A stretch of DNA of 63,884 bases, filler included, from Thraustochytrium aureum (taxonomy: Eukaryota): the NCBI GenBank assembly GCA_012862495.1. It is 6 parts of 5 records of this genome, joined end to end, with 100 filler letters (N's around TTAATTAATTAA, not from the genome) between each part and the next. Parts side by side here need not be neighbours in the genome. Positions count along the whole stretch, not along the records: positions 27,964 to 41,495 come from BLSG01000020.1; 5 more parts are not named here. One strand, 5' to 3'. The notes below the pieces were generated by a model. The model saw only the letters and a list, made by a program, of their open reading frames with translations. It did no database searches and was not told the DNA's origin. Made by a program: the position numbers and the translations under genes. Shown in pieces: positions 16,544 to 62,800 of the stretch. The first letter of the stretch is position 1, and every line of letters starts with the position of its first letter.

Positions 16544-17594
16544 GGCCCTCCTGTCGATGCCCATGGAGACTATGCTCGACGCGTTGCCGAGCTTGATTGC
16601 AGACGTGATCATTTGCGACGCCCCGTACAACATCGGGATCAACCAGGTGTGGGATTCGCTGGGCCACGAGGCCTTTGTGGCGCAGGTGAGCAGGTGGGCG
16701 CGGCTGATGGTCCGCTGCCTGGCGCCCAACGGCGTTGGCTTCGCCTTCACCTCTGCTCACTACATGAGCTACTGGGTCAACGCTCTTCGGACCGCGCGGG
16801 GTGCGCCCGCGCTGAACGAGACCTCGACAAGCCCTGCGCCGCCGGTCATCGTCGAGTCGGCCGTCTGGTTCAAGCCGGACGCGCAGTGGCGGCACGAGTT
16901 TGTCCGCGACAACGTCGACAACCTCGCCTTTTCAAGCGAGTTTCGCAACCAACCGCAGCTGGTCAAGGACAGCTTTGAGGTCATGCTAATTTTTCGCCGC
17001 TCCGAAGCAGCCGCGACAGAGTTTACCGCTATTGCCGATCGCCTGCTGGCCCGAGACGCCGCCAACGTGTTTAAAATCGGCAAATGCAAGGGTGCAGAGC
17101 GCCTCCAGGGCGAGAGCTGGCACCCGGCGCAAAAGCCGCTTTCGCTGATGCGCGCCCTCGTCGCGGTTTGCAACGAGCGGAGCCGCCAGCCCTCGAAAGA
17201 CATGCTCGTCCTCGAGCCGTTTGCCGGGACAAGCTCTGGCCTGGTTGCTGCCGCGGAGGCGGGCGTTCCGTCAATTGGCTGCGAAAACGAGCAGCACTGG
17301 GTCGACGTCTCGCAGCGTCGTTTCCTGAGCCTTGACGCTGCCAAGTTGGCATGGCGCGATGGCGAGACGCCGAGGTCGGGCCGGTTCGGTCGGATCAAGT
17401 CATTTGCAGCAAAGTCTGGCGCGTGGCTCAAGTCGGCCGTCGCAGCGGCTTCAAGCGGCGGCGGCGAGACGCCCGCGAACAGCACGGAGCAAGAGCTGCG
17501 CAAGAAGCTGGACGAGCAGGCCAAGAAGCTCGAAGAGCAGACCAAGCTCATTCGCAGTCTTCAAGAGTCCCTCGCAAAGGCGCGGGCGGCTTAG
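16544..17594 (+). CDS. Beta-class amino-DNA methyltransferase (N6_N4_Mtase; N4-cytosine/N6-adenine) with C-terminal coiled coil
   Basis: Motif IV-like DVIICDAPYNIG (16617), RCLAPNG, VWFKP, SFEVMLIF, WHPAQKPLSLM (17121), motif I VLEPFAGTSSGLVAA (17214), SIGCE. Catalytic motif before the SAM motif is the beta-class order. Confidence 0.88.
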
Positions 17595-25353: not shown

Positions 25354-26506
25354 GCTCGCCAGCCCGCGCGCCGCGGCGGGTCCGCCAGCCCGCCACCGAG
25401 CCAGCAGCCTAGGGCCGCCCCGAAGCGCCACCAGTCAGGGCGCCCGATCTCCCCAAAACGTCGACAGCCTCCCGACGTGGACGCCGCCCAGACCCCTGCG
25501 CAGCCAAGTAGTTCGGGCGGGTCTTGAGGGAGGCTTGCGGGGCGAACCCGGCGTCGCGCGCAGCCGCCGCAGCCGCCGCTCCCGCGATGATGCCAGCCCT
25601 CGAGCCGCTCGGCACTGCCTACTAGCACTCCCTGCTGTGCGAAAGTACCATAGCGGACAAACAGACCAAAACACGGCATATTTCCGCAAAACCCCGGTAC
25701 TTCCGTCAACAACGGTACTTCACTTCAAATACGTCTCAGCGCGCAACGGAACAAAACGCACCCCGGGGAAACCGCCAGAGCCGCGCGCTTGTGCCAGCCG
25801 TTTCCCCGGTTTCGCCGTTTGCAGTTTTTAATTTTAATCCAACTAAATCGATTTATATCTTTAAATCGCCATGGCCGATTGGCGATGCGTTTCTGGTACG
25901 AGGCGTGGAGGGTGTGCGTGCTGGTTCTTTCTTTGGCAGACCCAGCACTCGCCTGCGCCGCAGTGCCAGGCGCCAGCAGGCCTGCGTGGCTGCGCGGCTG
26001 TGTGCGTGGGTGCGTGCGTGCGTGGCTGCGTGGCCCGTTTGCTTCCGACACGCTTCCGAGTCCTTGCTTTCGGCCGCTCGTGGTGCTGGCTGGCCTTCTC
26101 ACGATTCGCATCGGCTCGTGCACGTGCCACCGGTTGTTGCTCGCTCGCTCGCGGCGCACGAACTGCCGTCTGCTTGCTGGCCTTGCTGGACAAACTGCAA
26201 CGTCCTTGCTGGCTTGCATCAAGGGACTCCTCAACTGAGCAGAGCAGACCAACTGGAACCCTGGTGGCTAGCTACCGCGCCAGTCTTGATGCCTGGCTGA
26301 TCTCGGCTTGTGCAATTTGTGCAGGATCATCTCGGCACCACCGCCGCTGGAGGCTTGGATTCGAGGAGCAGCAGAAGGCTTGTGCATGATCGCACGCAGC
26401 AAGCCGCCTCGCGAACAGCAGACCTGCAAGAGCGGCTTGCGTGGCATTCAGGCTCTTGTTCCTCTCCCAAAGACCAAGACAGAGGTTGGGCAGCGCGACG
26501 GTGAAG

Positions 26507-27863
26507 ATGCAGCGCGCCGGCGCGGCTGCGCTCGTGCTCCTGGCGAGCGTCGTGGCCGTGGCGTTTGGAAACCTGGAGCTGGCCCAGGATCGGCCCATTC
26601 CAGAGCCAGTTCGCGACGGGCGCTTCGGTTGAAATGTCGGGGGACATCGTCGTCGTGGCGCTCGCGAAAGAAGCGCAAGCAGCTTTGGGCAAAGTGCTTG
26701 TGTTCAAGCGCGAGGGGCAGAACAGCTTCGCGCAAATGGCCGAGCTGGACCCGCCCGAAGAAGCTGTTTCGTTTCCGATGGGCGTTTCCGTCAGCGGCTC
26801 GACCATCGTTGTTGGCGCGACCTACAGGTTTGGCCAGTTTGAAACCCGTGGCTTTGGCGCTATCTACGAGCGGCGCGGGGAAGAGTGGGCGAACGTCGGC
26901 AAGCTAAACAGCACTCGGACTGGAGGGATTGGGCCTTCGTTCAAAGTTCGAGACGAGCGCATCGTCATTGCCGAGGCCAAGTCCACCTCTGGGGTAGAAC
27001 GATTCTCCTCGAAGCTGATGATGTTTGAGAGGCAGACCGACGGCGCGTGGGTCGAAACCGCCGTGCTCGACACTGGATTCGTGTCTATTGTGTCAAGTGC
27101 GGCATACAGGGTGGAGCTGAGCGATGGCGTCGTGACCGTCAGCTTGCTAGCGATCGAAAACGACGTTCTGATGACAGGGCTGCGTGTGTTCAAGGAGGAC
27201 GCGAGCGGGACCTGGGCGCCGCTCCCGCTCCCTTTGGAAGACTTTGTACTTGTCGTCCCACCCAACGAAGAAGACATTGGCACTGGGCTTCTGCGATCTG
27301 GAGTCTACTCGAACGGCAACCTTGTCGTCGTCGACGTCCCCATTGACTTCACACCTCCACCAGGCGTTCTGCCACCCATCACGCTGGAAGCTAGAGTGTA
27401 TGGGCTTAAGGCCGACAGCACGTGGACTGTGCCGTTTGAACTTGCCGCGGTCAGTAGCCCTTTGGAGTTTGGCACGTTTCTCTTCGACCTCTGGTATGAC
27501 TTTCAAGGCGACATGCTCATCCTTGGCGATCCCGCAAACTCAGACCGCGCCGCGAACGGGGGCGCCATGCGCATCTATCAGCGTTTCGGAGCGGATATCG
27601 GCGACCCCTGGGCGCTCGTCAACACCGCCTACCCTTTTGACGAGCAAGACGGCCTGCGGTTCGGTCGTCGCGTCGCCATCGACGGCCAAAACTTTGCGAT
27701 TGGCGCAGCGAATGAGGCCGAAGACAAGCCGATCGTCTACGTGTTTACCTACAACCCAGATACCCCTGTGCTGGCGTACCCGCGCGAGCACCGCATCGAG
27801 GGCCGCGTCATTGGCGAGTTTCAGAGCGAAGCCACCGATCCTCGCGAATTCTGCCGGCGCGCG
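26507..27863 (+). CDS. Secreted FG-GAP-repeat beta-propeller protein, 3'-truncated by scaffold end
   Basis: Signal peptide MQRAGAAALVLLASVVAVAFG (indel near 26600); repeats GASVEMSGDIVVVA, GVSVSGSTIVVGA, FGRRVAIDGQNFAIGA. Confidence 0.8.
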
Positions 27864-27963: not shown

Positions 27964-28234
27964 AAAGCGGCGTAGGCGCGGCGCCAGTTTTCGTGGAAAA
28001 AGGGGTGCGCGCAGTAGGTAGCACTCGAGCGTCTTGTACTCGGAGTGGTACCAGAAGGCGTCGTTGGCGTTGGGGGTGTCGATCATCCGGTAGCACATCT
28101 CGCGCCAGCGCTCCTCGGGCACCGCGGGATCGCGCGGTAGGCGGCCTCGAGGGTGATCCGGTCTTCGATTGGTTTGGGGACTGCCAAAGGGGAAAAAAGC
28201 TGGGCGCGTGAAACCTCTGCTGCTGCTCGGCAGC

Positions 28235-29075
28235 ATGAGTGACGAAGAGGGGAGCTTGGACTATGGCGAGGCGTGCTCCGCAGGAGAAGGTGCGCGGAGC
28301 TTGGCGCGGAAGAACAAGAAGAACCGCACGATCAAGAGGGCCGCGCCGCAAACACAACAGGCCGCAGAGGAAGCCGCGGGTGGACAACTTGCGCGCCAAG
28401 CTGCCCGACGTCGATGCCGCGCACAAGGCGCGCGTGGCGGAGCTCGAGGCGCTGGTGGCGCGCAGCGAGGAGCAGCCGCAGCAGCTGGAAACCTACGTGC
28501 TCAACTATGACGCGTGGGTCTACAAGCGCGTTGGGGCGATGCAGGAGGCGCTAGAGGCGGACGAGGAGGAGCGGCGCCGGGAGGAGCGAGGTGCTCGCGC
28601 CAGGGGGAGGCCAAGCTGCTGCGCTTGCACCGGCGCGCATTCGAGCCCTCGCTTGTTGCCCTCGCGAAGACGGTGCCGCACGGCTCGGGCTCCGAGATCG
28701 GCCCAGACCCGTGGGCTACGTGGGCGGCGACGACATCCGCGACTTCGTCCCGCGCGCCGGCGACCAGTACCAGCGGCAGTGCCGGCGCGAGTTCGACCGG
28801 CTCTACCACGACACGATCCGCCACTCGCGCAGGGAGGTGGTCGAGTGGCCGGACACGCTCAAGTGCAAGCTCGAGGCGGCGCTGGAGCTCGGCAAGCCGC
28901 GGCGGGAGGACTTCGTCTGCGACGACTGCAAGTGCGAGATGCGCATCAACACCGCGGAGGGCGTGCTTGTCTGCACGGGCTGCGGCTCTCGGTCAAGGGC
29001 GGCGACGGCGTCGGCTTCAAGGAGAGTCGCAGATGGAGACGCGCGGCGCGGCTCCGTACGACCGCCTGGCTCACG
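28235..29075 (+). pseudogene. VLTF3: Viral late transcription factor 3 (poxvirus A2-like), about 5 frameshifts, C-terminally truncated
   Basis: Zn ribbon CDDCKCEMRINTAEGVLVCTGCG (28918-28986), then across frames GVGFKE-SQMETRGAAPYDRLAH, matching the YxRxxH motif. Similarity stops at 29075. Confidence 0.75.
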
Positions 29076-30594
29076 CAAGTTGGTTGGATGGCTCTTTCCT
29101 TTCATTAGGTCGATGACGCCGACGAGGGTCGCTTCGTCGCTGGTCTGGCCTTCCTCTGGCTGCTCGTATTGAGATGGCGTTGGCGACGACGGCCTCGAGA
29201 TCGCCGGGGTATACGACGGCACACTGGACGAGAGGATCCGGTAATCGCAAGAGCACTTTGTTCTAAACGAGGGAATCATGGACTCCATCATCCCCGGTGC
29301 CACTCCGGTTGCCGACACTAAGCCCCAGCGCACTGGAGCGTCAAAGAAGACCACCAAAGCCACACAGGGTGGTACCAAAAAAACGCCACGTTTTTGCGGC
29401 GCGTCACCCCAATAGGACCTACTAGTACCCAATTATAGGTGAGGTTTTCGCAAGCTTGTCTCTAAATTGACCCGGGATCGAATCCTAGCACAAAACAGAG
29501 GGAGCTACTTGGGGTAAATAAGAACTCTTAGTGGTTACTTAGCGCCGCGCAAACGTCAGAGGGGCATGACATGCGGCCGACCTCTCAGCGCATGCGGTCC
29601 AGGAGGCGGCGGTACGCGCCGGCCGCGGAGCATCACCAAAATCAGCGCGTGTCGTCGCGTTAGTCCCCAAACGACGCGAGTTGTCAAGAAGGCATGACGA
29701 AAGAGAAGAAGCTGCTGGGCGATTCGCCACGACACAGTCGGTCTTGGGGGAGTCGCGTATACATGACGCTGACTGATTTGAAAGGCGTGTGGCAGTCTCC
29801 AGAGGAACAGGAGGTTGTAGGGGATAGGCAAGACGGCCGAAGGCATCGCTCCTGGGATAGGCTCTTTTTAGCACCACTCGGGTTGGGGCTACTTGTAGAC
29901 GAAGCAAAATCCGGGTGTCCCTTTTTCTTGTCCTCAGCAGACCCCAAACAACGGGAAGCAAAATGTGACCCAAGTGCGAGAGNNNNNNNNNNNNNNNNNN
30001 NNNNNNNNNNNNNNNNNNNNNNNNNNNNNNNNNNNNNNNNNNNNNNNNNNNNNNNNNNNNNNNNNNNNNNNNNNNNNNNNNNNNNNNNNNNNNNNNNNNN
30101 NNNNNNNNNNNNNNNNNNNNNNNNNNNNNNNNNNNNNNNNNNNNNNNNNNNNNNNNNNNNNNNNNNNNGACTTGGCAAGAGCGACTCGAGTACGAAGGGC
30201 ACTCACTGGCGCTGAAGAAGCAAATGATCAAACTCCAAGAGACGAAGCGCAACACCGACCTTCAGACGATCGAGATGTTGCTAGACGAAAACGACGTCTT
30301 CTCGGACGAGCTTGGCAAGCTGGAGCGAAAGGCCATCGTTCCCAACACGACCAAGCGCATGAAAGCCAACACGTACAACCCGCAAACCAATCCCGCATCT
30401 CCGCTGAGCAACGTGAAGATCCCGCGACAGAATCGAAAACCTCAAAGGAAATTGCGGAGACCAGTCTCGGGCGACGCCTCGGCTCGTCTGAGGTTGTCGA
30501 GTCCGAGTCGAAGTTGGCCAGGGCTGAGCACGGCGAATGGCCGCCGAGTAGCAAGAAGTGAAACAAACAACACGTACAATCCTAATTCTTGATT

Positions 30595-31194
30595 CTATCT
30601 CGAGGGCAGACCAACGGGCGCGGGCATGGCGTTGCGCGAGGGCAGGCCGGCCGACAGGTTGCCCGCGTAGCTGCTCCCGCCATAGACGCCTCGGTAGCGC
30701 GAGTTGACCAAGACGACGATAGCGACGACGGAGAAGATTCCGACGGCCACGCCGCCGGCCAGCGCGCCGATCGCCAGGCCCGCGCCCAGGGACCAGGCGA
30801 TGAGGCTCGGGCCGAAGGAGTTCGTGCGACCGTAGCCCGAGTTGAGCAGGATCGCGTGCAGGGCGAACCCGGCGAAGAGCGCGGCCATGAAGAAGGCCGC
30901 CATCGCCCCCTTCTCCATGGCGAAGGCGAGCACGGTGCCGACGAGCGCGCCGGGGATGGGGATGAAGGACAGGAGGTGCAGCATGTAGTTGAAGCCGGAC
31001 CAGAGGCCGCCGGGGTAGGGCATCGCCGCCGTTGAGCAGGCCGGTCTGCGAGGCCTGCACGAGGGCTTTGGCGCGGCCGGCAGCCTGCCCCTGCTCGACC
31101 CAGCCGATCTGCTGCATCCTGAAGTCCACCTCCGCATCGAGCGGCATCGTCATGTAGTTGGAGTAGGAGCTCATCGAGCGGAAGAGCCCGCCAT
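30595..31194 (-). CDS. Hypothetical 3-4 TM membrane protein (viral segment), frameshifted
   Basis: MSSYSNYMTMPLDAEVDFRMQQIGWVEQGQ... joins PYPGGLWSGFNYMLHLLSFIPIPGALVG...VGIFSVVAIVVLV in another frame; strong C/G third-position bias. Confidence 0.55.
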
Positions 31195-31373
31195 GGCGAA
31201 GTTGGCTTTGTGCTTGCGCTACATTTTAGTCCTGGTCGCTGAGGTCGGAGGGCGGCAGCTCCTCGCCCGAATCGCTGGCCGAGTCTTCGGCCGCGTCGGT
31301 TCCCGGGTCGGCGGCGGGCGCCGCTTATCAACGGGAAAATCTCCCCTCGGGATTGCCAAGACCTCACTACCAA

Positions 31374-32546
31374 CTAATAAAAGAGCCAGGGCTGCCCAGC
31401 CTGTGGGCTCGAGCATACCTTTTCGCTGGGTGGTGAAGAACCCTCACATTCGTCACCAGTCCGCCCTCCGGTGCAAGGGTTTGTGCGTCGCATGCGGTGC
31501 TCGTAGTGGTCGGTCTCCTTGTTTTTGTCTCGGTTGCCCTGGTTGGCTTGGCCGCAGCGCGTGTGTTGGCTCTTGGCGCACAGTCGCGTCTCGCTAATCA
31601 GGTTCCGGGAAAGCGGGATCATGCTTCGGCCCTCCACCCGCGAGGGGACGGGCACGCCGATGGCCTCCATCACGGTGGGGTAGATGTCGACCATCTCGGT
31701 CATCTGCCAGCGCTTTTGGCCGCGGCGCTCCTGCGGCATGCCCGGGATGGCGATCACCATCGGGGTCCTGACGGCCGAGGCGCCTCGGTGGTCGAGTTTT
31801 TGCAGACCTGGCCCTGGTCGCCGTGGCGCCACCCGTGGTCCGAGAAGGCAACGAACGCCGTGTTCCTCTGGCCCATGAGCCAGTCCTCATAGCTGACGCA
31901 GGCAAAGTACATCTCGCGATGGCCGCGGATCTCCTCCATGGTGAGCGGTTGGCCCGACCTCTGCACGCGGCAGTTGAAGTAGGGGAGGTTGTAGGGTGCC
32001 TCGAGAACCGGCGGCACGGGCACCTCCAGCGCCCAGGGCGGGTCCGGGTCGAACCTGTCCGCCGCGAGCCCGACTTGTACATGTCCTCGAAGTAGGTGGG
32101 CGCGCGGAGTGGCGAGTGGGGCACGTTGATGGCCCAGAAGATGGCAAAGGGCTTCCCAGTCTTCTCGTACTCGTGCTTTTCAACTCGGCGAGCTTCTCCA
32201 AGACCCACGCCTTGTTCACCTCGTCGCGGCAGTCGTATTCGCCGCTCGAGATTTTCATTTCGCGGAGCGTGGCCGGCGAGGGCCCGTCCCAGGCGTCCTT
32301 GTAGGAGGGGGCGCCCGGCGCCACGCCGGGCCCGCCTCTGCAGCGTGTCAACTTTGGGTACTCTGTGCCCCTTTTCCTCGACTTGCTCTGCGTTGATCTT
32401 GAGGATGGGGTCGGGGTCGGCCGGAGCGAAATCCTTCCGCCGCCCGCCGTCGAGGACGCGGCCGTCGTCTGATTTGTGCAAGACTTTGCCGACGGAGATG
32501 ACGTTGTAGCCCTGTTCGCTGAGGTAGTTCATCATGAGCAGGTTTT
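31374..32546 (-). pseudogene. Sulfatase (iduronate-2-/choline-sulfatase-like S1 family), disrupted; 5' part in gap
   Basis: GYNVISVGKVLH, KPFAIFWAINVPHSPLRAP, YFACVSYED, FSDHGWRHGDQG..CK, VRTPMVIAIPG, EMVDIYPTV...VEGRSM, spread over several frames. Confidence 0.85.
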
Positions 32547-33016
32547 NNNNNNNNNNNNNNNNNNNNNNNNNNNNNNNNNNNNNNNNNNNNNNNNNNNNNN
32601 NNNNNNNNNNNNNNNNNNNNNNNNNNNNNNNNNNNNNNNNNNNNNNNNNNNNNNNNNNNNNNNNNNNNNNNNNNNNNNNNNNNNNNNNNNNNNNNNNNNN
32701 NNNNNNNNNNNNNNNNNNNNNNNNNNNNNNNNNNNNNNNNNNNNNNNNNNNNNNNNNNNNNNNNNNNNNNNNNNNNNNNNNNNNNNNNNNNNNNNNNNNN
32801 NNNNNNNNNNNNNNNNNNNNNNNNNNNNNNNNNNNNNNNNNNNNNNNNNNNNNNNNNNNNNNNNNNNNNNNNNNNNNNNNNNNNNNNNNNNNNNNNNNNN
32901 NNNNNNNNNNNNNNNNNNNNNNNNNNNGACCCGACAGGCGGACACCGAACACAAGTGCTGTGGTGCGAGACGCTGTACCGAAAGAGGCCACAGCCAGAGA
33001 GTCGCAGCGAGCTCAG

Positions 33017-34198
33017 ATGTCGGCGGGGGGGAATAGTCGGGGTGTTGTGGGCGACAGCGTGGCGGCCAGGAGGGCATCCAGTTCGCCGCCTGGCTCTCGT
33101 CGGGTGGTTTTCTCCGCGCCCTCGGCAGCGAGGGATGGTTCGCGTGGCGGCCCGCCAAATGAAGCCGCCTCGGGCGCCGCGCAGTTCTCTGTCCTCAAAG
33201 AGCACCTGCATGCGCTCGAGAAGCTGCTCTACATTGGCGGCTCAAGAGAGGCGAGCATGGAGAAATCGGCGAAGAGCATCTACGAAATGTGGCTGACAGA
33301 GTCCAGCAAGGTGCAGCGGTCAGAGGCCGATCACCAGGCGAGCTACATCAAGAGCAACCAGGACGTCTACAAAGCCTTGCACATAATCGAGGAGGTTTGT
33401 AGGTCGCCACAGATCCACGATGCGGTGGTAACCTCCCTCCAGAGGGTTTCGGGGTTGCCCATAGCCAAGCAAATGGTCGCACAGTCCGCGGAGCAAATCG
33501 AAGCTATTCTGGCAGCCATCGAGCCGAATGTGAGTAGCGTGGACATTCTGTCTCTAGCCCACGCTTTGCGTCCAGCGAAGCGGCTCAAGGGGATGGCCGA
33601 AATCGATGCGGCAAGGCGCATCAATATTTGGACCGTCTACGCCCAACCCATCTACGACCGAGTACTCCAAGTCGTCGAAACCGGGTTGGACCAGGTCGTC
33701 GCAGGGTTCGGGAGTGCGGGTGTTGGGCCCATGAGTGCGGTTTTTGAGCGCTTGGTGCGTGCGGTTTGCTTGAATGGCTCCTCGATGTCGAGTGTTTACC
33801 AGTGCCTTGCAGACGCTGGCGCTGGCGGCGAGTCGTCGCATGTGGAACCCGACCTGGCGCCCGAGGAGGAGGCGGAAGCGGTGGGCGAGAAGCAGCAAGA
33901 GGAAGGGGGGACGGCGGGCGAGAAAGAGCAAGAAGGGGAGGAGCGGCCCGCGGAGACCGGCGAGAAGCGGCAAGGAGAAGAGCAAGCAGGGGGGAATACG
34001 GGCGCTCGCGAGAAACGAGTAAGAGAGCCCGAGGGCGAGGACAGCGAGGACAAAGACGAACACCGGGTGCGCGGAAAGAAAAAGAAGGTCGTCTCGGACC
34101 GCGATTGTGTCATTGGCCTGGTGCGACTTAAAAAGGCGAGTGTTGGCGGCGGCGCCCCGCACAAGAAGAAGAGCAGCAAACAAGTAGCAAACAAGTAG
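33017..34198 (+). CDS. Intact hypothetical protein with helical core and acidic/basic tail (GEKxQxE repeats)
   Basis: Open frame from the gap edge to TAG 34198; ATG at 33017; family not recognised. Confidence 0.6.
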   Translation: MSAGGNSRGVVGDSVAARRASSSPPGSRRVVFSAPSAARDGSRGGPPNEAASGAAQFSVLKEHLHALEKLLYIGGSREASMEKSAKSIYEMWLTESSKVQRSEADHQASYIKSNQDVYKALHIIEEVCRSPQIHDAVVTSLQRVSGLPIAKQMVAQSAEQIEAILAAIEPNVSSVDILSLAHALRPAKRLKGMAEIDAARRINIWTVYAQPIYDRVLQVVETGLDQVVAGFGSAGVGPMSAVFERLVRAVCLNGSSMSSVYQCLADAGAGGESSHVEPDLAPEEEAEAVGEKQQEEGGTAGEKEQEGEERPAETGEKRQGEEQAGGNTGAREKRVREPEGEDSEDKDEHRVRGKKKKVVSDRDCVIGLVRLKKASVGGGAPHKKKSSKQVANK

Positions 34199-34216
34199 CA
34201 ACGTAGTTTTTTTTCC

Positions 34217-34874
34217 ATGTGGTTTGCGATGGGCAAGTTCAAGGTCAACCCAATCACGATAAAAGACGTCAGAGATGTCCGGGCGGGCGACATTCGATCC
34301 AGCCGATCGATGTGCGACACGGGCGGGGCGAGGGTCAAGTTCGAAATGCCCTTGGGCGAGCAGAGGCACGTGCTGCACTGCGCGCAAAAGTGCAAGGAAA
34401 TGTCGGCCAACGGATCCAGAGGTGAAGCGAGCAATTGCTTCTTGCACGCAGATTCCAAGGCGTGCCGGATCGCGGACTCCGGGGCAGGCGCGTCCCCGCC
34501 GAACGACGCATACGTTTACTTCTACTCGCCGGGCTCCGGCCAGGAAGGCTGGACGCCAACCGACAAATCCGCCCCAGGATGCGAACACGGACGCCACTCC
34601 GCCCCGCCGCCATCGGGTGGCGGCGGCGGCGTACTGTTGGCGCAACGGGGACCGCGAGTGGCCCACCCACGGAGACCACGGGCGGCGCAGCGCAGGCACT
34701 ACAGAAGAAGCAAAAAACTCCTCGAACACAATGATGATCATCGGTGGGGTCGTTGCAGCTCTGCTGGTCGGCGGGGGCCTCTATTACGTGCTCTCTAGTG
34801 GGCCGCCTGGTTCTTCTTCGGTTGCTGCGGCTGGTCAAGGTGCTTCCGGGCCAAAGAAAAAGAGGAAAGCGTAG
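34217..34874 (+). CDS. Hypothetical Cys-containing single-pass membrane protein (frameshifted)
   Basis: HCAQKCKEM...CFLHADSKAC ectodomain; TM MMIIGGVVAALLVGGGLYYVL and basic tail KKKRKA lie in a second frame. Confidence 0.5.
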
Positions 34875-35397
34875 GTAGTTTTTTGGGGAAGCGCCTCCCG
34901 GCAACTTTTCGCCAGAGTTGGGCGCCGAGCTGGCGGTGCTCCGGCGGGAGGCGGTGGCGCGGCCGTCGGAGGCACGCTTTCCCCAACCGCTACGCCCGAT
35001 GGCGGAGGCACATCCTCGCCTCCCGCCCCAACGGACGAGCCCGTCTTCCTTCCCAAAAGCGAGAGCAGGTCGCGAAGGACGGCCAGAGGGTGAGGATGCG
35101 GTCCTCGAACCCGTATTGGTGGGCGGCGGATGAGACTCTAGCTAGTGTTTGCAGCGACGTCTTGCCTGTTCTACTTGAAGGCGGGCTCTTCTGGGGACCT
35201 CGGAGCAGACACCTTCAAGGTAAACTATATGCCGGGCGGGATGGCAGTCTTGCGCGATGCCTTCGGTGACGTCTTGGGTTGGCGACGAAGCGATGGGCGC
35301 GCGCGGATCCTGACAGAAGGCAAGCCCGACTTTAGTGCGTTCATAGCAGCTAGTTAGTTTGGGCGTTTGGCCCTGATCAATGGATTCACTTTCACAA

Positions 35398-35943
35398 CTA
35401 GAAAAGCGTGGGCGCGATGGAGTCGTTGCTGGTCAGGCTCATGGGGTTCGACATCTCGACGGCCTTTCGGATGAGTTTTGGCGCTTCGTGCTTGCCGACA
35501 ATGGCCTTGACGGTGGGGGATGTGGCGAGCAGCAGCACCGGCACGTTTGGTCCAGGTTGCTCTGCAAATAGGCGTCTCGGGCAAAGTTGTGCACGACGAA
35601 CCACTCGATCTGGCACTGGAGGCGGGCGAGCATGGGGTTCCCGAGCGGCGTGTGGGTCCTCTTGTGCGTAGACTTGGATGCGATTGTGCGAAGCGTGCGA
35701 AGCGTTTGTCTCGAGCACCCGAATGAGCCTGTCGCGGTCCTGTCTCAGCGCGTTGTTCTCGAGGACCAGTTGCATGTGTTTCTCAGCCAGGGAATCGCGG
35801 TGGCGAGCGAGGCTGTCAGCGTGGGCGCAGGCGTTCTGCAGGCGCGCGTTCATGTCCCAGCAGAAGCGGCTCGCGTCGGAGCGGGCTCTCCAGACGGCTC
35901 TGCCCGCACGAGAGACCACGCGCCGCAGCTCCCTCGTCCTCAT
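35398..35943 (-). CDS. Hypothetical coiled-coil ORFan (viral segment), probably frameshifted
   Basis: ATG 35943 downstream of an A-rich tract; heptad-like LAEKHMQLVLENNALRQDRDRL. Confidence 0.45.
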   Translation of the reverse strand: MRTRELRRVVSRAGRAVWRARSDASRFCWDMNARLQNACAHADSLARHRDSLAEKHMQLVLENNALRQDRDRLIRVLETNASHASHNRIQVYAQEDPHAAREPHARPPPVPDRVVRRAQLCPRRLFAEQPGPNVPVLLLATSPTVKAIVGKHEAPKLIRKAVEMSNPMSLTSNDSIAPTLF

Positions 35944-36442
35944 TGTGCGCCTGGCCCAAGCCGTTTTTTAGCTTGGTGGCGGCGCAGCGCCTCCGGCGCT
36001 CCCGTCGGAGCAAGAAAGACTTGAGATTTTAGACAAGAGGAACNNNNNNNNNNNNNNNNNNNNNNNNNNNNNNNNNNNNNNNNNNNNNNNNNNNNNNNNN
36101 NNNNNNNNNNNNNNNNNNNNNNNNNNNNNNNNNNNNNNNNNNNNNNNNNNNNNNNNNNNNNNNNNNNNNNNNNNNNNNNNNNNNNNNNNNNNNNNNNNNN
36201 NNNNNNNNNNNNNNNNNNNNNNNNNNNNNNNNNNNNNNNNNNNNNNNNNNNNNNNNNNNNNNNNNNNNNNNNNNNNNNNNNNNNNNNNNNNNNNNNNNNN
36301 NNNNNNNNNNNNNNNNNNNNNNNNNNNNNNNNNNNNNNNNNNNNNNNNNNNNNNNNNNNNNNNNNNNNNNNNNNNNNNNNNNNNNNNNNNNNNNACGACT
36401 CATGGGATGATCGCGTGTCGACCCGGCTTGATTTCCGCATAT

Positions 36443-36916
36443 TCATACTGCGATTGCACGGGTCGAGGCCGGCTTTGAGAAACCCAAGTTGAACCACTGG
36501 AACGCGATCAGCCTGGGGAGCGGCAGGGCCAGGTCGCCGAGCTCGGCGCAGGCCTGTACGGGCGGGTTGCGCTGGCTCTCCCAGACCAGCTCGCCGCGCC
36601 CCGGCGCCGACTCGAAGTCGTAGAAGCGCTTCTTCAGGTTGGCCACCATGGCCTTGTACTCGTCCACGACGCAGCAGATGCCGCGGGGGTGCGCCCGAGC
36701 CTGCCGCGCCCAAAGTGCTTCACGAAGTAAGACATCACGGAGCCCATGCGCTCCCCGTTTGGTGCAGCGTTTCTCGAGGCGGTGGTACTTGTCCCGGAAG
36801 AAGGCCCGCATCTTCTCGCGGTGCGCGACCTGAAGGGCCGAAAAGTTCGTCTGCGGCCGTGCCGGCTCGGCCGCCTTCGGCCCCTCCTTCTGGGGGCTCG
36901 CTTCTGGCGCTGACAT
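36443..36916 (-). CDS. Hypothetical ORFan (viral segment)
   Basis: ATG 36916 (MSAPEASPQ); C/G-ending codons; divergent from the gene at 37059. Confidence 0.55.
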   Translation of the reverse strand: MSAPEASPQKEGPKAAEPARPQTNFSALQVAHREKMRAFFRDKYHRLEKRCTKRGAHGLRDVLLREALWARQARAHPRGICCVVDEYKAMVANLKKRFYDFESAPGRGELVWESQRNPPVQACAELGDLALPLPRLIAFQWFNLGFSKPASTRAIAV

Positions 36917-37058
36917 GGCGTTCGGGGTCTGCAGGCCTGGTACCACGTGATTACCGAGTTGGGGACAGCACAGATTTTTCCTCGCGGCCAGCCGAGGAAA
37001 CAAGTCCCTCGGCTTTTATCTCCCGAGCAGCAGCTAAGAGCCAGAGACGCGGCGGGCG

Positions 37059-37888
37059 ATGGAGGACTTGCTGAATGCATCATGGCCATGGCGCCCGCGC
37101 ACGTCGCGATCGCCTTCCTGACGAGGTGCATGGCCGACGACTCGACCGACTGCGTGGGAGAGGCGCCGCCGGACCAGGTGCGGGCCGCGCGGCTGCGTCT
37201 TGCACTCCGCCAGCAAGAGGGAGCTGGGCGGCGCGCCAGGCCGCGCGCGAGGCCACGGAGAGCCTCGAGGGGAGCAACGAGGGGCTGAAGAACGCGATCC
37301 AGGAGAACGCGTCTCTGCTGGCCGAGCTGCGCGCGGCCCGCGAGGAGGTGGTGGGCGAGAACGCTGACACCGCCAGGTCCTTCCGCAACGCGCTCGCCGC
37401 CATCGCGAAGCAGTTCTCGCTCGCCCTGCACGGCGCGATTCGGGGCGAGGAGCTCGAGGAGTTTTTCGCCGAGCCCCTGGAGAACGAGGCCGGTCGCGGA
37501 CGGCGCGGGCGTGGTCGAGGAGCTGGGCTACCCTCCTTTCCGGGAGGAGCGGTGCCCGCTCGGCCACCTGTTCGAGGTGGAGCCGACAGCCGACGGGAGG
37601 CCGCCCCCGGCGTTCTTCGATGCGCGGCGCGAGGCGCACGAGGCGGCCAGCAGAGAGCTCAGCAGCAAAGCCGGCAGCAAGGACAGCGAAGGCGAGGAGA
37701 GCAGCGGCGAGAGCGAAGCGGGGAGCGACGAGGAGGGCGGAGGCGACGGCGGCCGCGACGAGGCGCCAGGCGGGGCAAAGGCCGGAGCCGCAGAGCTCCA
37801 CGCGCGCAGGCTGCGCCCTCTCCCGGCCAGGCTGCACCGCACCCTGACTGGAACGAATGTCCTGTTGCTCGGAACAGAGCGAACTTAG
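37059..37888 (+). pseudogene. Frameshifted coiled-coil/acidic ORFan (viral segment)
   Basis: Protein-like pieces in successive frames: MAMAPAHVAIAFLTRC / ESLEGSNEGLKNAIQENASLLAEL / VEELGYPPFREERCPLGHLFEVEP. Confidence 0.5.
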
Positions 37889-38206
37889 TTTTCCGAGGTC
37901 TTTTCCGCCCTGTTTCGAGAACAGTTCAGGAAACAAAACGGAAGGTCATCTCAGACTCATCTGGCGCGCGTGAGTGGAGCGCTGCGCCGGGCGCGCTTCA
38001 GCGGCGGCGGGCGCGCGGGCGCGAGTGGGTGGGCGGCGNNNNNNNNNNNNNNNNNNNNNNNNNNNNNNNNNNNNNNNNNNNNNNNNNNNNNNNNNNNNNN
38101 NNNNNNNNNNNNNNNNNNNNNNNNNNNNNNNNNNNNNNNNNNNNNNNNNNNNNNNNNNNNNNNNNNNNNNNNNNNNNNNNNNNNNNNNNNNNNNNNNNNN
38201 NNNNNA

Positions 38207-39311
38207 GCTGAAAGGCGAGCCAGAGCGATAGTCAAGACGCAAGCCAAAGCTTCGAAGCCGGTATTGGACCACGAGTGGCCTGGATTTGTCGTCCCCGGCG
38301 CAGAGCGCGCCCCGAACTGGCGCGGCGTCGTCAGCCACACGCTCCTCGTGCGGCGAAGCAGAAGGACGAGCCAGAGTAGAAGGAGAAGGAGAAGCCCGGG
38401 CGGGAACAGGCGACGAAGTAGGCGACGAAGGAGTCGACGGAACCGACGACGAAGCCGACGACGGAGCAGACGAAGAAGCAGACGCCGAAGCAGACGACGA
38501 AGCAGACGCCGAAGCAGATGCAGCGCGCCGCGTCGACGCCGAGAGCTCCGGCGAAAGCTCCGGCGACGATGGGGGCGCTTCCGGCGCGGCGAGCTCCAGT
38601 GGCGACGAGGCCGAAGCAATGCCTGCCACCAGCCTGGCTCCGAGCCCCCGCCGCCCGCCGGCCCGAGGCGAGGAGGAGCGAGGGGCGGCGCTCTTGCTCT
38701 CGCTCGGCGGGCCGCGCAAACCCGCCGAAGGCGCCGAGGCGCCGCCCAGAAAGCGCCCCAAGCTCGACGCCCCCGACGGCGGCGACGACGGACCTGCGCA
38801 AAAGCGGCTGGTGCGGCGAGTGACCCGAGCGAGCGTCCTGGACCTGACGGAGAAGGACATCCTCGACGCGGTGGCGCTCGTGCGGGGCGACCCGGCTGCT
38901 TTCAAGTCCTCCGTTGTGGACAAGCAGACCTCCATGTGGGGCCACCCGGTGCGCAGCGCGCTCTTTGATGTGATACTCGACGACACGAAGCGCCGAGACA
39001 AGTGGCACAGGAGCAAGCCGACGGAGCGAAAGCCGGCGGGGGTCTCGGAGCTCCACCTCTGGGTGCGGTGCCCCTTCGGGACCAAGGGCTACGGCATCTC
39101 GAGCTTCCACTACTGGATCAACGCCTACCCCATGAAGGAGGCGCAGGCCCGCGTGGCCAAGGAAGACGAGCGCCTCCGGCGCCGCCAGCCCACGGACAGC
39201 GACGTCGAGCGCGAGAAACAGGCGCGCGAAAACAAGAGGCACATGCTCAAGCTCAGGAAACAGTGTCTACTCAAAGACAAAGTGGGCGTGGGTGTCTCCG
39301 CAAGTAGTTAG
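38207..39311 (+). CDS. Hypothetical protein with acidic (DEEADAEAD) repeats, NLS-like RKRPK and a globular C-terminus; 5' end in gap
   Basis: ORF 38286-39311 plus an upstream piece in another frame. Confidence 0.55.
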
Positions 39312-39394
39312 GAAGGAAGGGAGGGCCGCAAGTGTATTGTATTGGCGCGCCGTGCTAGTAGCAAACCCAAGGCGCCGCTCCCGGCGACGAGCGC

Positions 39395-40200
39395 CTAGTC
39401 CTCCATGGGCTCTGCCTCCTCGGCGGCGGCCTCCTCGGCGGCCTTCTGCTCGGCGATCTTGAGGCGCTCCTGGATCTCGTTGGCGAGCGTGTAGACCCTG
39501 ACGCCCTTGTCGTCCGGGCCGTGCTCCGCGTCGGCCTTGCGGATGGTCAGGAAGGTGCCCTTGGCCACGCCGAGCTCCTCCTTCGCGAGCCGCAGCGACT
39601 CGATCCACACGTTGCGCCGCTTGGGGGCGCGCGCGCTTCGCGCACACCTTGCGGACGCGCACCTCGTGCTCCTCGCACTTGGCGTCCTTCCACACGGCCT
39701 TGGTGTACTTGTGGCCCGCGCGGCCGGCCTTGCGGTTGGCCGGCGTGTCCTTGTACTCCAGCTCGACCAGCTCCTTGCGGCCGGTTTCGGGCTTGTGGCG
39801 GCGCGCCTTGACCGCCTTGGCCTGCGAGAGCTCCGGCATGCGGCGCTCGATCGCGCAGATCATGCCGAGGTTCTTCCCGCCGGTGTGGTTGAGGCCTCGG
39901 CACGCGCAGTTGAGCGCGTTGAAGCCCTCCGAGGTCTTGATGCGCGCGGATCTCGCGCAGCAACCGGTTGATGCGCTTCTGCACCACCTCGCGACTCTTC
40001 CTGTTTTCGTCCTCGTCCGGGATGCGCTCCAGGACGCGGCCGAGGTAGGTCTCGCTGCTCGTCTCGGCCACGACGCCGCGCAGGGCCATTGGCGGCAGGA
40101 GGGCGGCGCGGCGCGGGTTCACGGCCGGGCGCGCGCGCTCGCCAGCGAGCGAGATCTCAGCGGCGCCCACGGCAGTCGGGGCGGAGGCGACGTCGGCCAT
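39395..40200 (-). CDS. Basic protein with DVNP-like C-terminal motif (2 frameshifts)
   Basis: MADVAS...RINRL / ARSARIKTSEGF...YKDTPANRKAGRAGHKY / RRNVWIESLRLAKEELGVAKGTFLTIRK...GVRVYTLANEI. Confidence 0.5.
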
Positions 40201-40680
40201 CTTGGTGCTGGGCTGGCTGTGCTGGCTCGGTGCTTTGGCGGAGTGCTTGCTTCTTGCGGCTGTGTGGGTGGCTTGGTGCTCAAAGTCTCTTGGGCGGGTG
40301 GGCGAAAAGGGTTTTGCTGCTTGGCCTCAGGCGCATTTTGTTTCCTGCTTNNNNNNNNNNNNNNNNNNNNNNNNNNNNNNNNNNNNNNNNNNNNNNNNNN
40401 NNNNNNNNNNNNNNNNNNNNNNNNNNNNNNNNNNNNNNNNNNNNNNNNNNNNNNNNNNNNNNNNNNNNNNNNNNNNNNNNNNNNNNNNNNNNNNNNNNNN
40501 NNNNNNNNNNNNNNNNNNNNNNNNNNNNNNNNNNNNNNNNNNNNNNNNNNNNNNNNNNNNNNNNNNNNNNNNNNNNNNNNNNNNNNNNNNNNNNNNNNNN
40601 NNNNNNNNNNNNNNNNNNNNNNNNNNNNNNNNNNNNNNNNNNNNNNNNNNNNNNNNNNNNNNNNNNNNNNNNNNNNNNNN

Positions 40681-40986
40681 CTCGTCAGGCGCATGCGGGC
40701 CGAGCTGGACACGCTGGGCCGCGAGGCGGAGGCCAGCGGCGAGCAGCTCCGGGTGGTGATCACGCAAGTCCGCTTTGAGAACGAAGCGCGCTTTGGCCTC
40801 GACGCGGGCGGCATCGTCGTCGCGGTGCGCCCAGGCTCGCGCCAGACGCAGGCGTCGGCCAACGGCGGCCAAGTCTCCGAGTCGGGCTTCCCGGCAGCGC
40901 TCATCAGCGACTCGCTGGACAACTCGGGCTCTCTGCTGCGCCTCGAGGAGGAGGTGCGCGCGCTGGTCGCCAGGCAAGTGATTTAG
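40681..40986 (+). CDS. Deoxynucleoside monophosphate kinase (phage T4 gp1/NCLDV type), C-terminal half; 5' part in gap
   Basis: VVITQVRFENEA...GGIVVAVRP...QVSESG...LDNSGSLLRL matches the family pattern VVIxDxRFxNE...GG.v..i.R...H.SE...i.N.gsl..L. Confidence 0.75.
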   Translation, partial: LVRRMRAELDTLGREAEASGEQLRVVITQVRFENEARFGLDAGGIVVAVRPGSRQTQASANGGQVSESGFPAALISDSLDNSGSLLRLEEEVRALVARQVI

Positions 40987-41037
40987 CTCGACTTCCAAGC
41001 CCAACAAACGGTGGTTCGCCGAGAAGCAGCGACAAGC

Positions 41038-41298
41038 ATGCCTCAGCGCTCGCTGGCCGCGAAAGGCCAGGCGTCGCTCATCAGCGCCCTGCGATCCGCG
41101 ACCGAGCGCCACACCGACAGCCCCGAGGTGTTCCTCGGGGACAAGCAGGTCGACCGCGTGCTGGCGCGCGAGCTGGTCTTCCAGAACGGCAACTTTGCCC
41201 CGCGCGACGTCTTCGAGGTGGCGCCCGCCATGGCGGCCGAGCAGGAGTTCGACCACAGCCTCGAAGACCTGCTGCCGATGTTCAGCAACAAGGCGTAA
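41038..41298 (+). CDS. Small hypothetical ORFan (viral segment)
   Basis: ATG 41038 to TAA 41298, strong C/G third-position bias. Confidence 0.55.
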   Translation: MPQRSLAAKGQASLISALRSATERHTDSPEVFLGDKQVDRVLARELVFQNGNFAPRDVFEVAPAMAAEQEFDHSLEDLLPMFSNKA

Positions 41299-41495
41299 AT
41301 GCATCCGAGGAAGGCTTGCTCCTAGTATTTAGCTCAATGGGTCGTAAGACCCCTCCCGCAAACTTGGCTGAGTTTCGCAGAAACGAAACCAGCTTCGGGC
41401 GTGGGACAAAGATCCAAGCCGCATCCTTTGGCCCGTCTACTGCGAGCGACTCTTCCAGTGTAGAGCCAGAACGGGCGTCGAGGGGCGGGAAAGCG

Positions 41496-59811: not shown

Positions 59812-62800
59812 ACAGCCAATCGAACCTGTTATCTGCACATTAAACATATAAAAAGAACAAAATGAAGCTGTTAACCCTTGTCTGTCAATTGAATAAGGTG
59901 TAGGTTTCCGTTCACGTAAATTATACTGTGAAGTGCTTGCTCAGGCACACTTCGCTTCGAATGCGGCATTGAAGACGAGATGGGACACCATAAGCGCTTC
60001 CGGTTTGCTTTGATGTATGTTCGATGGGATAGAAGTTTGCTTTTTCCCCATGCAGGCGCCAGTATTCATGCCCACCCAAATATATCTTGGGAATTTGACG
60101 GCAAACCAAGCACTATCGACTTTGAGCAAAATCTGCTCCGCTCGTGTCATCTCAGGGCTAGCGAGGCGACTCATACGTATAGACCAATGTATAAGCTCGG
60201 CGTATGACGAGTTTGAGAACCTGTATGCAAAGGCCTGCAGCGCCACACAACCTCGCGTCGGGGCTTAAAATTTTNNNNNNNNNNNNNNNNNNNNNNNNNN
60301 NNNNNNNNNNNNNNNNNNNNNNNNNNNNNNNNNNNNNNNNNNNNGAATTTTGGTGTTCCCGGTTTGCAGACGATGCAAATTCTAAATGGTCGACTCTGGC
60401 GCAATGAGCAGCTGCACATAGTCACAGGATAACCTAATGGGTTGTTTGCCGAGAGATGGCTGAGCAATGTCTTAGTGTTAGCTCGTAATTTTTGCTCGCG
60501 GCTCTAGATGGTGGGCTCGTGACTCTGTGTGTTGAGCACCTTCGTTGCGAACGGTTTAGCGAGGTCCAGCTTGCCATCTTTTTTGCTCATTCTCATGAGC
60601 TGCCCGGCCTCCTCCATAGCCGCAAAGTTACGCTGCTCCTTGAGCCGTTGCATGGTCAATTTAAGCCAGTCGTTGACTGTCTTCGTGGTTATTTGGCCCT
60701 GGTGGAAAACCCATGCGCGCACTGCGGCTTCAGGGTGAATTTTCGTGGGACCAGGAGAGGGCGGGGAAGAAACACCAAGGCTAACCTGCTCTGTAGCCAG
60801 ATACGGTGGTGAATGTGAGGTGGACGAGAGAGGAACGGCACGTGGAACATGCGGATTGACGTCGAGCTGGTCGTTCAAAATCGGTGAACTCACTCCCCGG
60901 ATGGCAACCCCAGCATGGTACCAGTTTGGCGTCCGTCCCCGGGAGGCGGTAGGGGTATTGGCTTGGAGGACTTGCTCAACAATTGAGCTTTCGAGCGCAG
61001 AACTGTCACACCCGCGTGCGCTTGGCAGTTTGAACGCCGACTTGGCAATTGAAACATCATCCAGTGGGATGCCGAATTCGTCGCGCTCGGCCTTGTCGAT
61101 GGCCGTCACTATCTCTAGGCTTTTTGCTGTGTCCACTCGAATTTGGGCAAGAGCTTGGCGTCGATCCTCCTCGCTCATAGACTCAAGGGGAATGCTCGCG
61201 CTCTTCTTCGTAAGCAGCTCCGAAATCGTGCCCTCTTCTGCCGCAAGCTTGCGTTTCGATGTCTCTTCCCACGTTTGCAGTTTGGCCTTCCTCCTTTCCG
61301 CGTCTTCGTGGGCCTCGATCTTGCGTTTTTTAAACTCCAGATCGAGCTCGACTTGGAGCTCCACTATGCGCCTTTTGATCTCGCTGTCAAGCTCCAACCT
61401 TCGCTGCTCGAACTCTCTGTCGATCATGAGATTTAGCTTGTCCACATCGCGGTCTACCTTGGCGCCCTCCTCCGTCACAGTTTTGGCAATCCGCTCTCGG
61501 TATTTCGGGAACTGGTCCTTGTACCACAACGCTGTAGCGCGAATCTCGCGACGCGTCTCGCGGCACTCCTCTAGAGTTCCGGACGACTTGATGACCGCGG
61601 CTCTGCCGAGGTTTGGGCCGTGTGCGTCGATCCTCTCGCTAATTGACGTCCAGTTCGAATATTGCGTGCTTGCAGCACCGGAGGCGCCCTCGTCGCAGCT
61701 GTCGCGAGACCCTGGAGGTTGAGGCGGCGGGTCGTGAGGCACCAGATCGATCGATGAGACACGCTGAACCTCGCTTAGGGCTCGCGCGTATCTGAAAGGA
61801 CGCTCTGTGGAGTTGAACTGAAGCGTGTTTTGCTTGAGAACGCCGTCATTGAGATGAATGATGCGAGTAAATGGCACAATTCCGGTCGCACGCATGGATT
61901 TCCTCAGGACAGCACTTGACATGGCGTCGACGAGCGCCGCGCCAGCGGCTTTGAGCGTATTTGCCCTGTCTAGTTTCTTCCCTTCCCGCACAAGCGCCCT
62001 TTTGAGCGACTTGAACTTGGACGAGAAAGGGCCAAAAAGAGCCACATCCGGGCCCTGCATAACGCTGGTGCAATTTGGCAGCCACATTGACACGATAATC
62101 CCGAGACTGTCCAGAGAATTGACGAACTGGGGCGACAGTCTGCTGGGGTGAAAGTCGAGGAAAAGTACCACCTTGGTTTTGGGGTCGTCAGGCGAGAGGT
62201 CTGGGAACTTGACCTTGAGGATACCGTTGACGATCAGGTCGCAAATGTTCGATTGTTCAACGCTACCGTTGGGCGAGACAGCCACAATGGGCTCGTGATT
62301 TGGGACGCCAAGATCGCGCATATCTGGCGCGTGAGTTTTTAACTCGTCGAGCAGTCGCTTCGGCACCGCGCGAGTCGAGCTCTTGGACGGAAACACCCAG
62401 CCGATTGGAAGAGCGTCCAATGCTGCCGTATGCCCAACGATCATCGTGATGTGCTTCTCGTATTGCTTTGGTGCGACGACTCGACGTGCTTTTGCGACCT
62501 CGCGCGACTTGGAGTCGAACCCAATTCCTTTCAGCGCAGGCTGCCGGCCGCGGCGCAAGAGTGCCTTGCCGTCGTGATCAGCAATGCTCGTCTCATCCAA
62601 GACGCATACACGGTTTGGGAACTTCCAAATCAACTCTGGCACTTCTTCCCCTGAATCGCGGCTCCAGTCAGGATTGATCTCTGCAACGCCCTCTCTCGCG
62701 AACCTGCGTTTGTTCGAGTCGTACCAAAACTCTATGTTGTCCGCGATATACCACCGCGCCATCTCAGCCTTCATGCCTCGACCACGCGCCATCCCAATTC

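Follow-up and report, generated by a model that had tools for sequence, protein, structure and literature searches.

The stretch of DNA considered here (the window, 63,884 nucleotides with filler, from the Thraustochytrium aureum assembly GCA_012862495.1) consists of six small scaffolds with N-flanked linkers between them. Its third scaffold, at 27964-41495, has five internal gaps and was described in an earlier look at the sequence alone (the original prediction) as a decaying giant-virus or mirusvirus-like element; linkers are found on both flanks, and its limits are as predicted. It contains the first exon of a VLTF3 gene, a sulfatase-family gene, half of a deoxynucleoside monophosphate (dNMP) kinase gene and, on both strands, about a dozen genes without family (ORFans), which frame track and family searches bear out. 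The GC content of 64% equals that of the host, the trinucleotide distance to the host is 0.09, and CpG is undepleted (observed/expected about 1.1). The scaffold is a remnant of a virus of the type called Skiavirales by Latimer et al. (10.64898/2026.07.28.741200) and Ariadnavirales by Yutin et al. (10.64898/2026.08.29.747986), with SmDNAV (PMC8354545) as prototype, and not a working member: where an intact genome would be uneroded and 190-252 kb long, inherited frameshifts and a broken VLTF3 are found. The lineage had been taken as unsampled, which is outdated now that its VLTF3 matches the order of these two 2026 preprints. What is said here of Yutin et al., and of the papers cited below as PMC12606086, 10.1101/2023.06.15.545109, PMC12768974, PMC6450098, PMC12455990, PMC12210455 and PMC10132985, concerns selected passages of them.

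The VLTF3 gene was predicted correctly, but frameshift-aware alignment finds exon 1 alone. This skiavirus-type exon lies at 28235-29074 (+) and is interrupted by about six frameshifts, near 28296, 28342, 28590, 28736, 28987 and 29025. Aligned to a profile of its subfamily it scores 239 bits over positions 25-311 of 311 (20 shuffles: 19.8±2.4), and against a generic profile of 117 IMG/VR VLTF3 proteins it scores 37.6 bits (25 shuffles: 14.8±1.8), a match confined to the zinc ribbon and the motif that follows. With the exon-1 profile, three frames of the window give 74, 55 and 34 bits, compared with 18 for the best of the 117 generic proteins, and the alignment spans nearly the full length of this profile, including about 150 residues outside the query. 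A full HMMER search with a 95-amino-acid piece against 1.84 billion protein representatives returned six matches. Five, at E 1e-9 to 2e-5, are true homologues, and the sixth, an ankyrin protein (P0019), was dropped as a chance match. The alignment of the five led to two metagenomic loci, L242 and L243. L242 sits on Ga0206131_10000343, the 67-kb record IMGVR_UViG_3300020185_000043 (hereafter G001), which Latimer et al. name as having skiavirus gene hits and leave unresolved as a genome (10.64898/2026.07.28.741200). This contig carries a double-jelly-roll major capsid protein (MCP; Capsid_NCLDV, E 9e-40) and A32, together with Herpes_ori_bp, WLM, YqaJ, S8 peptidases and a weak PCNA match, and in its MCP, A32, WLM, Herpes_ori_bp, YqaJ and PCNA it is like Skiavirales. 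By similarity and a shared intron site, the VLTF3 of the window falls with the SmDNAV-related clade. A mirusvirus VLTF3 as its closest kin finds no support, since the closest relative with context has Capsid_NCLDV; the comparison included no labelled mirusvirus VLTF3.

Other searches added little. A word-index protein search with the VLTF3 piece found nothing, and IMG/VR scans with the piece, the alignment and one motif found no relatives; the sole match of the piece, L001, lies in a phage-like contig and is due to chance. In GTDB, the alignment likewise drew no match. Atlas hits, namely two Pox_VLTF3 clusters at 0.83 and low-overlap ankyrin hits, are leads only. VLTF3 is also named in a figure legend of PMC10132985. 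At the second locus, a DUF5871 gene (L243:422-1195(-), E 1.5e-15) stands head to head with VLTF3 on a contig of 28% GC, which is skiavirus-like in content and very different in composition.

In all five homologues the sequence reads His-Val-Ser right after a YxRxxH motif and similarity then ends, because in the DNA of both L242 and L243 a GT donor follows that codon. The putative introns are GT..AG in type, 603 nt long in L242 and 266 nt in L243, and have a pyrimidine tract and AG at the 3' end. They are in phase 0 and cut the motif as YxRxxH|F, which predicted splicing would restore in frame; exon 2 of L242 is a Pox_VLTF3 domain (E 2e-33). Both introns contain an antisense open reading frame (ORF), at L242:10873-11373(-) and L243:2329-2594, and the two copies are 39% identical over 59 columns. 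The ORF in L242 has no PHROG or Pfam family; of eight proteins examined, one (P0018) has a tail compatible with the antisense motif, which finds no match in 162,909 residues of controls. In the window, a degenerate donor (GC) lies at this conserved position (29075-29080 (+)), abutting the last aligned codon, where L242 and L243 have GT. Exon 2 in the sequenced part of scaffold 3 does not rise above noise (at most 22.6 bits vs 198 for a control), and the nested antisense gene was not found in the window. The VLTF3 message of intact relatives is thus predicted to need the host spliceosome, and a VLTF3 subfamily split by a conserved GT-AG intron with an antisense gene would be new.

The packaging ATPase gene A32 of G001 (L246:4971-6800) appears to be interrupted even more often. 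Seven candidate GT-AG introns with branch-point motifs were identified, six of 55-70 nt and one of 557 nt, and the eight exons join into a stop-free protein of 301 amino acids. Exons are as short as 7, 11 and 12 nt; that of 7 nt was placed by hand, the automatic exon chain having missed it. The 557-nt intron, number 4, contains an antisense ORF matching PHROG endonuclease VII (E 1e-18). It therefore has the features of a shintron (an endonuclease ORF nested in a GT-AG intron of a morphogenesis gene), with both splicing and homing predicted. The introns cluster in A32, with five within 1.2 kb, a density reached by none of 200 shuffles; the contig is not intron-rich overall (9 pattern hits vs 10.9 in shuffles). 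In its capsid ORF (L247:16819-18700(-)) the first ATG leaves out the start of Capsid_N, and donor-like sites lie upstream, possibly marking an intron.

These putative introns differ from what has been described. Yutin et al. see no sign of intron invasion in the passages concerned (10.64898/2026.08.29.747986), and the single intron shown by Latimer et al. interrupts an ORFan (10.64898/2026.07.28.741200), whereas here VLTF3 and A32 appear to be split. The closest likeness is in mirusviruses, where MING-1 and shintrons (PMC12768974) comprise fixed-site spliceosomal introns that interrupt a hallmark gene and enclose another gene, and endonuclease introns in morphogenesis genes; those were described for Mirusviricota, while the present candidates are in VLTF3 and A32 of a nucleocytovirus. 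With an endonuclease-bearing spliceosomal intron outside Mirusviricota, shintrons would occur in two viral realms, which suggests that viruses infecting the same cell exchange them. Medusavirus (Mamonoviridae, a sister lineage) is likewise a nucleus-dependent nucleocytovirus and has seven putative spliceosomal introns, but nested genes and a VLTF3 intron are unmentioned in the passages of PMC6450098. In the literature examined we find no report of a VLTF3 intron, of a nucleocytovirus shintron or of a skiavirus copy in erosion, although the two preprints may already annotate these introns, or list this assembly, in their supplements and figures. The introns bear on a disagreement between the two preprints, one of which concludes that replication is cytoplasmic, with breakdown of the nucleus, and calls the lack of introns 'enigmatic', and the other that the virus relies on the nucleus (10.64898/2026.07.28.741200; 10.64898/2026.08.29.747986). 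Splicing of both messages is implied by the conserved intron in the VLTF3 motif and the seven in A32. There is also a practical side: at least on the G001 contig, two of the three markers by which the order is placed come out truncated from prokaryotic gene callers.

The frameshifts in scaffold 3 were first noticed as an excess, and this holds up. A codon model, with host genes as its training set, places 8 of them in 5.2 kb of predicted coding sequence in scaffold 3, whereas four host scaffolds together have 5 in 21.4 kb (p=0.001); it undercounts scaffold 3, where VLTF3 alone shows about six. The original prediction had used an EF-hand gene as a frameshift-free control, which overstated the contrast, as host genes also carry frameshifts (13482, 46060 and 55201). 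A DnaJ-TPR gene contains the one at 13482, of 1 bp; three of the four runs compared lack it and the fourth has no coverage there, so that it is an assembly error. Short introns were considered as a cause of the frameshifts and rejected: no GT[AG]AG[TC] donor is present at frameshift sites.

It is then necessary to ask which lesions are shared by other sequencing runs. A 3.1-kb probe is partly present in eight public runs from five studies. Five runs were compared as contigs, with X1, X4, X2 and X6 aligned on scaffold 3 and X1, X2, X3 and X6 on scaffold 1; a single sample underlies X1 and X4 and may be the strain of the window, and X2 is from another study (P2). Six frameshifts are crossed by contigs that are free of gaps there and have at least 61 bases on each side: 31019 (X1), about 36687 (X2, X4), about 37192 and about 37240 (X1, X2), 39638 (X4) and 39945 (X2). 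Where contigs have gaps, each gap was paired to a listed indel row of equal depth. X2 thus shares four of the six sites, and at each of the six a third-position GC content of 0.9-1.0 switches frame. Other lesions differ between runs. Those at 28585, 37076, 35120, 31776 and 34566 are absent from X1 and/or X2 and may be errors or private; X2 has a private lesion at 36599, found in neither the window nor X1, and is without 37486, which window and X1 have in common. In the listed pieces of X2, frame-changing indels number 5 in 4.4 kb of scaffold 3 vs 1 in 7.8 kb of scaffold 1 (p=0.03), and substitutions amount to 0.8% vs 0.4%. It follows from shared and run-specific lesions together that the decay is inherited across runs and still ongoing. 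Reads restoring intact frames at a coverage unlike the host's had been named as evidence against an endogenous element; several sites lack the lesion in other runs, and the six shared ones stay broken. With four of these found across studies and the excess over the host rate, pseudogenisation is both genuine and inherited.

Sequencing depth gives information on the copy state, although depth is no copy number. In X1 the median depth is 21.4 on scaffold 3 (24 of 30 bins, six dropped as gap) and 4.65 on scaffold 1 (23 of 30 bins; four dropped as gap, two as low-complexity, one as repeat), a ratio of 4.6; on long contigs the means are 14.1 and 4.5 for host, a ratio of 3.2. A single-copy element would have the depth of the host, so at 3-5 times this value a single-copy insertion is unlikely. 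In the same run 183 contigs align to scaffold 3 in all identity bands, from which it follows that several variants exist. One 5-kb contig of depth 8 is a diverged, rearranged variant of 29172-30588, possibly a second copy or a related virus. The comparison of coverage with host scaffolds that had been proposed as a check shows the element together with host DNA in X1 and X2 and, in X1, at a depth not equal to that of the host. No run is listed as RNA, and that X2 and X3 are RNA is a guess, so they lend no support to transcription, although X2 contigs cover 24 of 30 scaffold-3 bins. X6 is too thin for use: its pieces of the element are short, at depth 2-3.5, and long stretches of host DNA are absent from it. 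Integration was called unproven, and rightly: no listed contig spans a host junction, and none lies within scaffold 3.

The host is taken to be a labyrinthulomycete, and probably a thraustochytrid, judging by sequence similarity of a neighbouring protein and by the joint presence of element and host DNA in X1 and X2. The protein, on scaffold 5, has eight relatives at 35-50% identity, and the named members of its cluster are Aplanochytrium stocchinoi and an MMETSP0958 transcript. The taxid in the header of the latter resolves to a fungus, presumably by a slip for 87102, Aurantiochytrium limacinum.

Taken together, we give a probability of roughly 60% to the reading that scaffold 3 is a frameshift-broken piece of skiavirus type (Skiavirales/Ariadnavirales, Nucleocytoviricota), present in several chromosomal copies in a thraustochytrid-like host and losing its genes. 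The viral affinity of VLTF3, the shared lesions and the raised depth are observed directly in the data; integration, copy number and nuclear dependence we infer. A persistent, nucleus-dependent skiavirus genome would have entered the host chromosomes, the viral segment would then have been duplicated to about 3-5 copies, and with the lapse of selection indels of 1-5 bp would have accumulated. As GC at third codon positions is still at least 0.9, this build-up may be recent, and with VLTF3 broken and exon 2 absent from the scaffold, such a copy would not make virions alone. Of the 'endogenised large DNA virus' first proposed, the origin from a large DNA virus is borne out by the VLTF3 subfamily, while depth weighs against endogenisation as a single-copy insertion. 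A wider reading is, with odds a little better than even, that skiavirus hallmark genes depend on the host spliceosome, with an ancient gene-carrying intron in VLTF3 across the lineage and mirusvirus-like homing-endonuclease introns in the packaging ATPase, and that scaffold 3, an amplified and decaying copy handed down among the strains of one thraustochytrid species, is the fossil left at the end of such a persistent infection.

Several points weigh against chromosomal skiavirus copies. Capsid, polymerase, host gene and host junction are all missing from scaffold 3. Its other frames find no match on the 67-kb G001 contig, which leaves VLTF3 alone as the skiavirus link, although this fits the large pangenome reported for skiaviruses. 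The VLTF3 profile is partly circular, as it derives from a search with part of the window gene, and the placement near the SmDNAV-related clade comes from similarity and the intron site in common rather than from a tree. For scaffold 3 the indel results cover 12 of the 69 rows, those indels that only the window has are indistinguishable from assembly errors, and the X1 strain is possibly identical with that of the window. Finally, raised depth is equally compatible with an episome, and skiavirus genomes from long reads are circular, with erosion unreported (10.64898/2026.07.28.741200).

A defective skiavirus episome is the alternative to take most seriously, although we hold it to be unlikely. 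Such a circular viral genome would number about 3-5 for each host genome, with replication by enzymes of the host or by a co-resident helper virus, and daughter cells would inherit it even as the late genes decay. This would agree with a depth of 3-5 times host that is even along the scaffold, and with the more diverged, rearranged variant at depth 8 in X1; known persistent skiaviruses are circular and mostly without PolB (10.64898/2026.07.28.741200), and the mirusvirus AurliV-1 is kept at about 9 times the integrated copy (PMC12606086). It agrees less well with a broken core gene, a composition equal to the host's and a divergence between window and X2 of the same order as in host genes, and the literature examined describes no skiavirus episome that is eroded.

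More doubtful still is a remnant or mosaic of a mirusvirus (Soporavirales-type) that acquired a skiavirus VLTF3 exon and took sulfatase and dNMP kinase from the mirusvirus pool. The sulfatase gene, at 31377-32546 (-), has its 5' part in an N gap and four frameshifts (31780, 32068, 32182, 32337); it is recognised by Pfam (Sulfatase, and SGSH_C at E 6e-7), by NCBIfam (arylsulfatase, E 8e-10) and by sulfatases in the PDB, and contradicts the claim that no host-type gene is present. The predicted kinase is borne out as a C-terminal half at 40681-40986 (+), with matches at 40681-40983 to PHROG 139 (E 4.9e-7) and a local hidden Markov model (E 2.5e-13), and has Gln at the Asp and His motif positions of the profile. 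A mosaic would explain why one gene alone ties the scaffold to skiaviruses; AurliV-1 has a dNMP kinase and three arylsulfatases (PMC12606086), and gene exchange between skiaviruses and mirusviruses, as well as a possibly degrading mirusviral genome, is reported in thraustochytrids (10.64898/2026.07.28.741200). However, the kinase fragment is 34-44% identical to IMG/VR viral kinases in the best 12 matches, which is undiagnostic, and an IMG/VR scan with a kinase query found no relatives. No 'iduronate' or 'choline-sulfatase' entry and no annotated VLTF3 occur in the tables of PMC12606086 for AurliV-1 and AurliV-2, and two AurliV sulfatases look, by eye, like another subfamily. None of the Mirusviricota hallmarks (HK97-fold MCP, portal, terminase, triplex) was found in scaffold 3, and with the sole relative with context on a contig with a double-jelly-roll capsid, the label 'mirusvirus-like' is unsupported.

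That this is an intact co-cultured virus with frameshifts from sequencing or assembly is very improbable and already largely refuted by the shared lesions, for although 1-bp assembly errors do occur in host DNA (13482; 537, 784, 905 and 14342 in X1) and the lesions at the five sites named above are absent from X1 and/or X2, six frameshifts recur in separately assembled contigs with no gap at the site (four of them in another study), frameshifts are about 6 times as frequent as in the host baseline, most listed indels lie outside long homopolymers, and VLTF3 exon 2 is absent.

If scaffold 3 is a set of decaying chromosomal skiavirus copies, it differs from what is known of the order. No description of skiaviruses predates 2026, and those given are of persistent, intact genomes of 190-252 kb that are circular-mapping or linear from virions and have no reported erosion, and the string 'integrat' never occurs in the main text of 10.64898/2026.07.28.741200. 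The likeness is in the thraustochytrid host, the VLTF3 core gene and a content of mostly ORFans; the order lacks RNA polymerase and topoisomerase II, and mostly PolB (10.64898/2026.07.28.741200; 10.64898/2026.08.29.747986). The mirusviruses AurliV-1 and AurliV-2 of Aurantiochytrium limacinum (PMC12606086; 10.1101/2023.06.15.545109) are likewise persistent large DNA elements, one episomal and one chromosomal, that encode sulfatases, but belong to another realm (HK97-type capsid) and show no obvious erosion in the passages considered. Giant endogenous viral elements in Euglena (PMC12455990) and Acanthamoeba (PMC12210455) are also eroded giant-virus DNA in protist assemblies; they concern other hosts and virus groups, and scaffold 3 has no visible junction and undepleted CpG. 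An eroded copy inherited across strains would show the endpoint of persistence and provide datable lesions in an industrially used group of protists.

The other features of scaffold 3 are ORFans. Pfam was run on all 140 stop-free frames of at least 55 amino acids; sulfatase was the sole family matched, VLTF3 being missed in single frames, and neither a double-jelly-roll MCP nor an A32 ATPase was found in these frames of the 13.5-kb scaffold. No tRNA genes were found, Rfam gave no match at gathering score, and the repeats shown contain nothing notable. None of ten window proteins is present in an exact-sequence protein collection. Single-sequence folds were unusable (pLDDT 38 and 45), and one fold search gave nothing at E<=0.001. 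From the left, an ORFan fragment in the frame track runs off the scaffold end (27964-28158 (-), no family), and another without family has its 5' part inside an N gap (30170-30589 (+)). A hydrophobic ORFan (30598-31185 (-)) has the frameshift near 31019, with third-position GC of 0.93 and 1.0 in different frames on the two sides. An intact ORFan of 393 amino acids (33017-34198 (+)) has a helical N-terminal half and an acidic/basic tail and is without homologue, both a word-index protein search and a metagenome scan being empty. It is followed by a frameshifted Cys-rich ORFan with a C-terminal hydrophobic segment (34217-34874 (+); indel rows 34566, 34630 and 34685), a frameshifted one with approximate limits from a three-frame reading (34879-35357 (+); indel row 35120) and one of 181 amino acids (35398-35943 (-)). 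The ORFan at 36443-36916 (-) has two compensating frameshifts, about 36758 and about 36687, where third-position GC of 0.9-1.0 flips frame. At 37059-37888 (+) there are four, at 37076, about 37192, about 37240 and 37486, of which the outer two vary by run. Two short stretches at the 3' ends of this divergent gene pair, 36398-36467 and 37856-37894, recur in other contexts in X1, X2, X4 and X6 contigs; Rfam does not match these dispersed stretches, which are unexplained repeats. Further on, an ORFan whose middle is acidic and of low complexity and which has a C-terminal domain (38206-39311 (+); the structure model is of low confidence) precedes a basic one (39395-40200 (-)) with frameshifts at 39638 and 39945, where a third-position GC of 0.94-1.0 passes through three frames in succession. 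A likeness of the latter to dinoflagellate viral nucleoprotein received no support from Pfam, and an IMG/VR scan found no relatives. The last is an intact ORFan of 86 amino acids (41038-41298 (+)).

The neighbouring scaffolds hold three further observations. Scaffold 6 (59812-63884) looks like a complete DNA transposon, with terminal inverted repeats of 22 nt, 54% GC and one ORF of 1052 amino acids that has no Pfam match at E<1e-3 and no NCBIfam match. On scaffold 2, a gene for an N6/N4 DNA methyltransferase (16557-17591 (+), Pfam E 2e-17), a family that is mostly prokaryotic and viral, lies among host genes. At the end of the same scaffold there is an FG-GAP repeat protein (26505-27863 (+)), and ORF 1 of AurliV-1 is likewise annotated as FG-GAP-like (PMC12606086).

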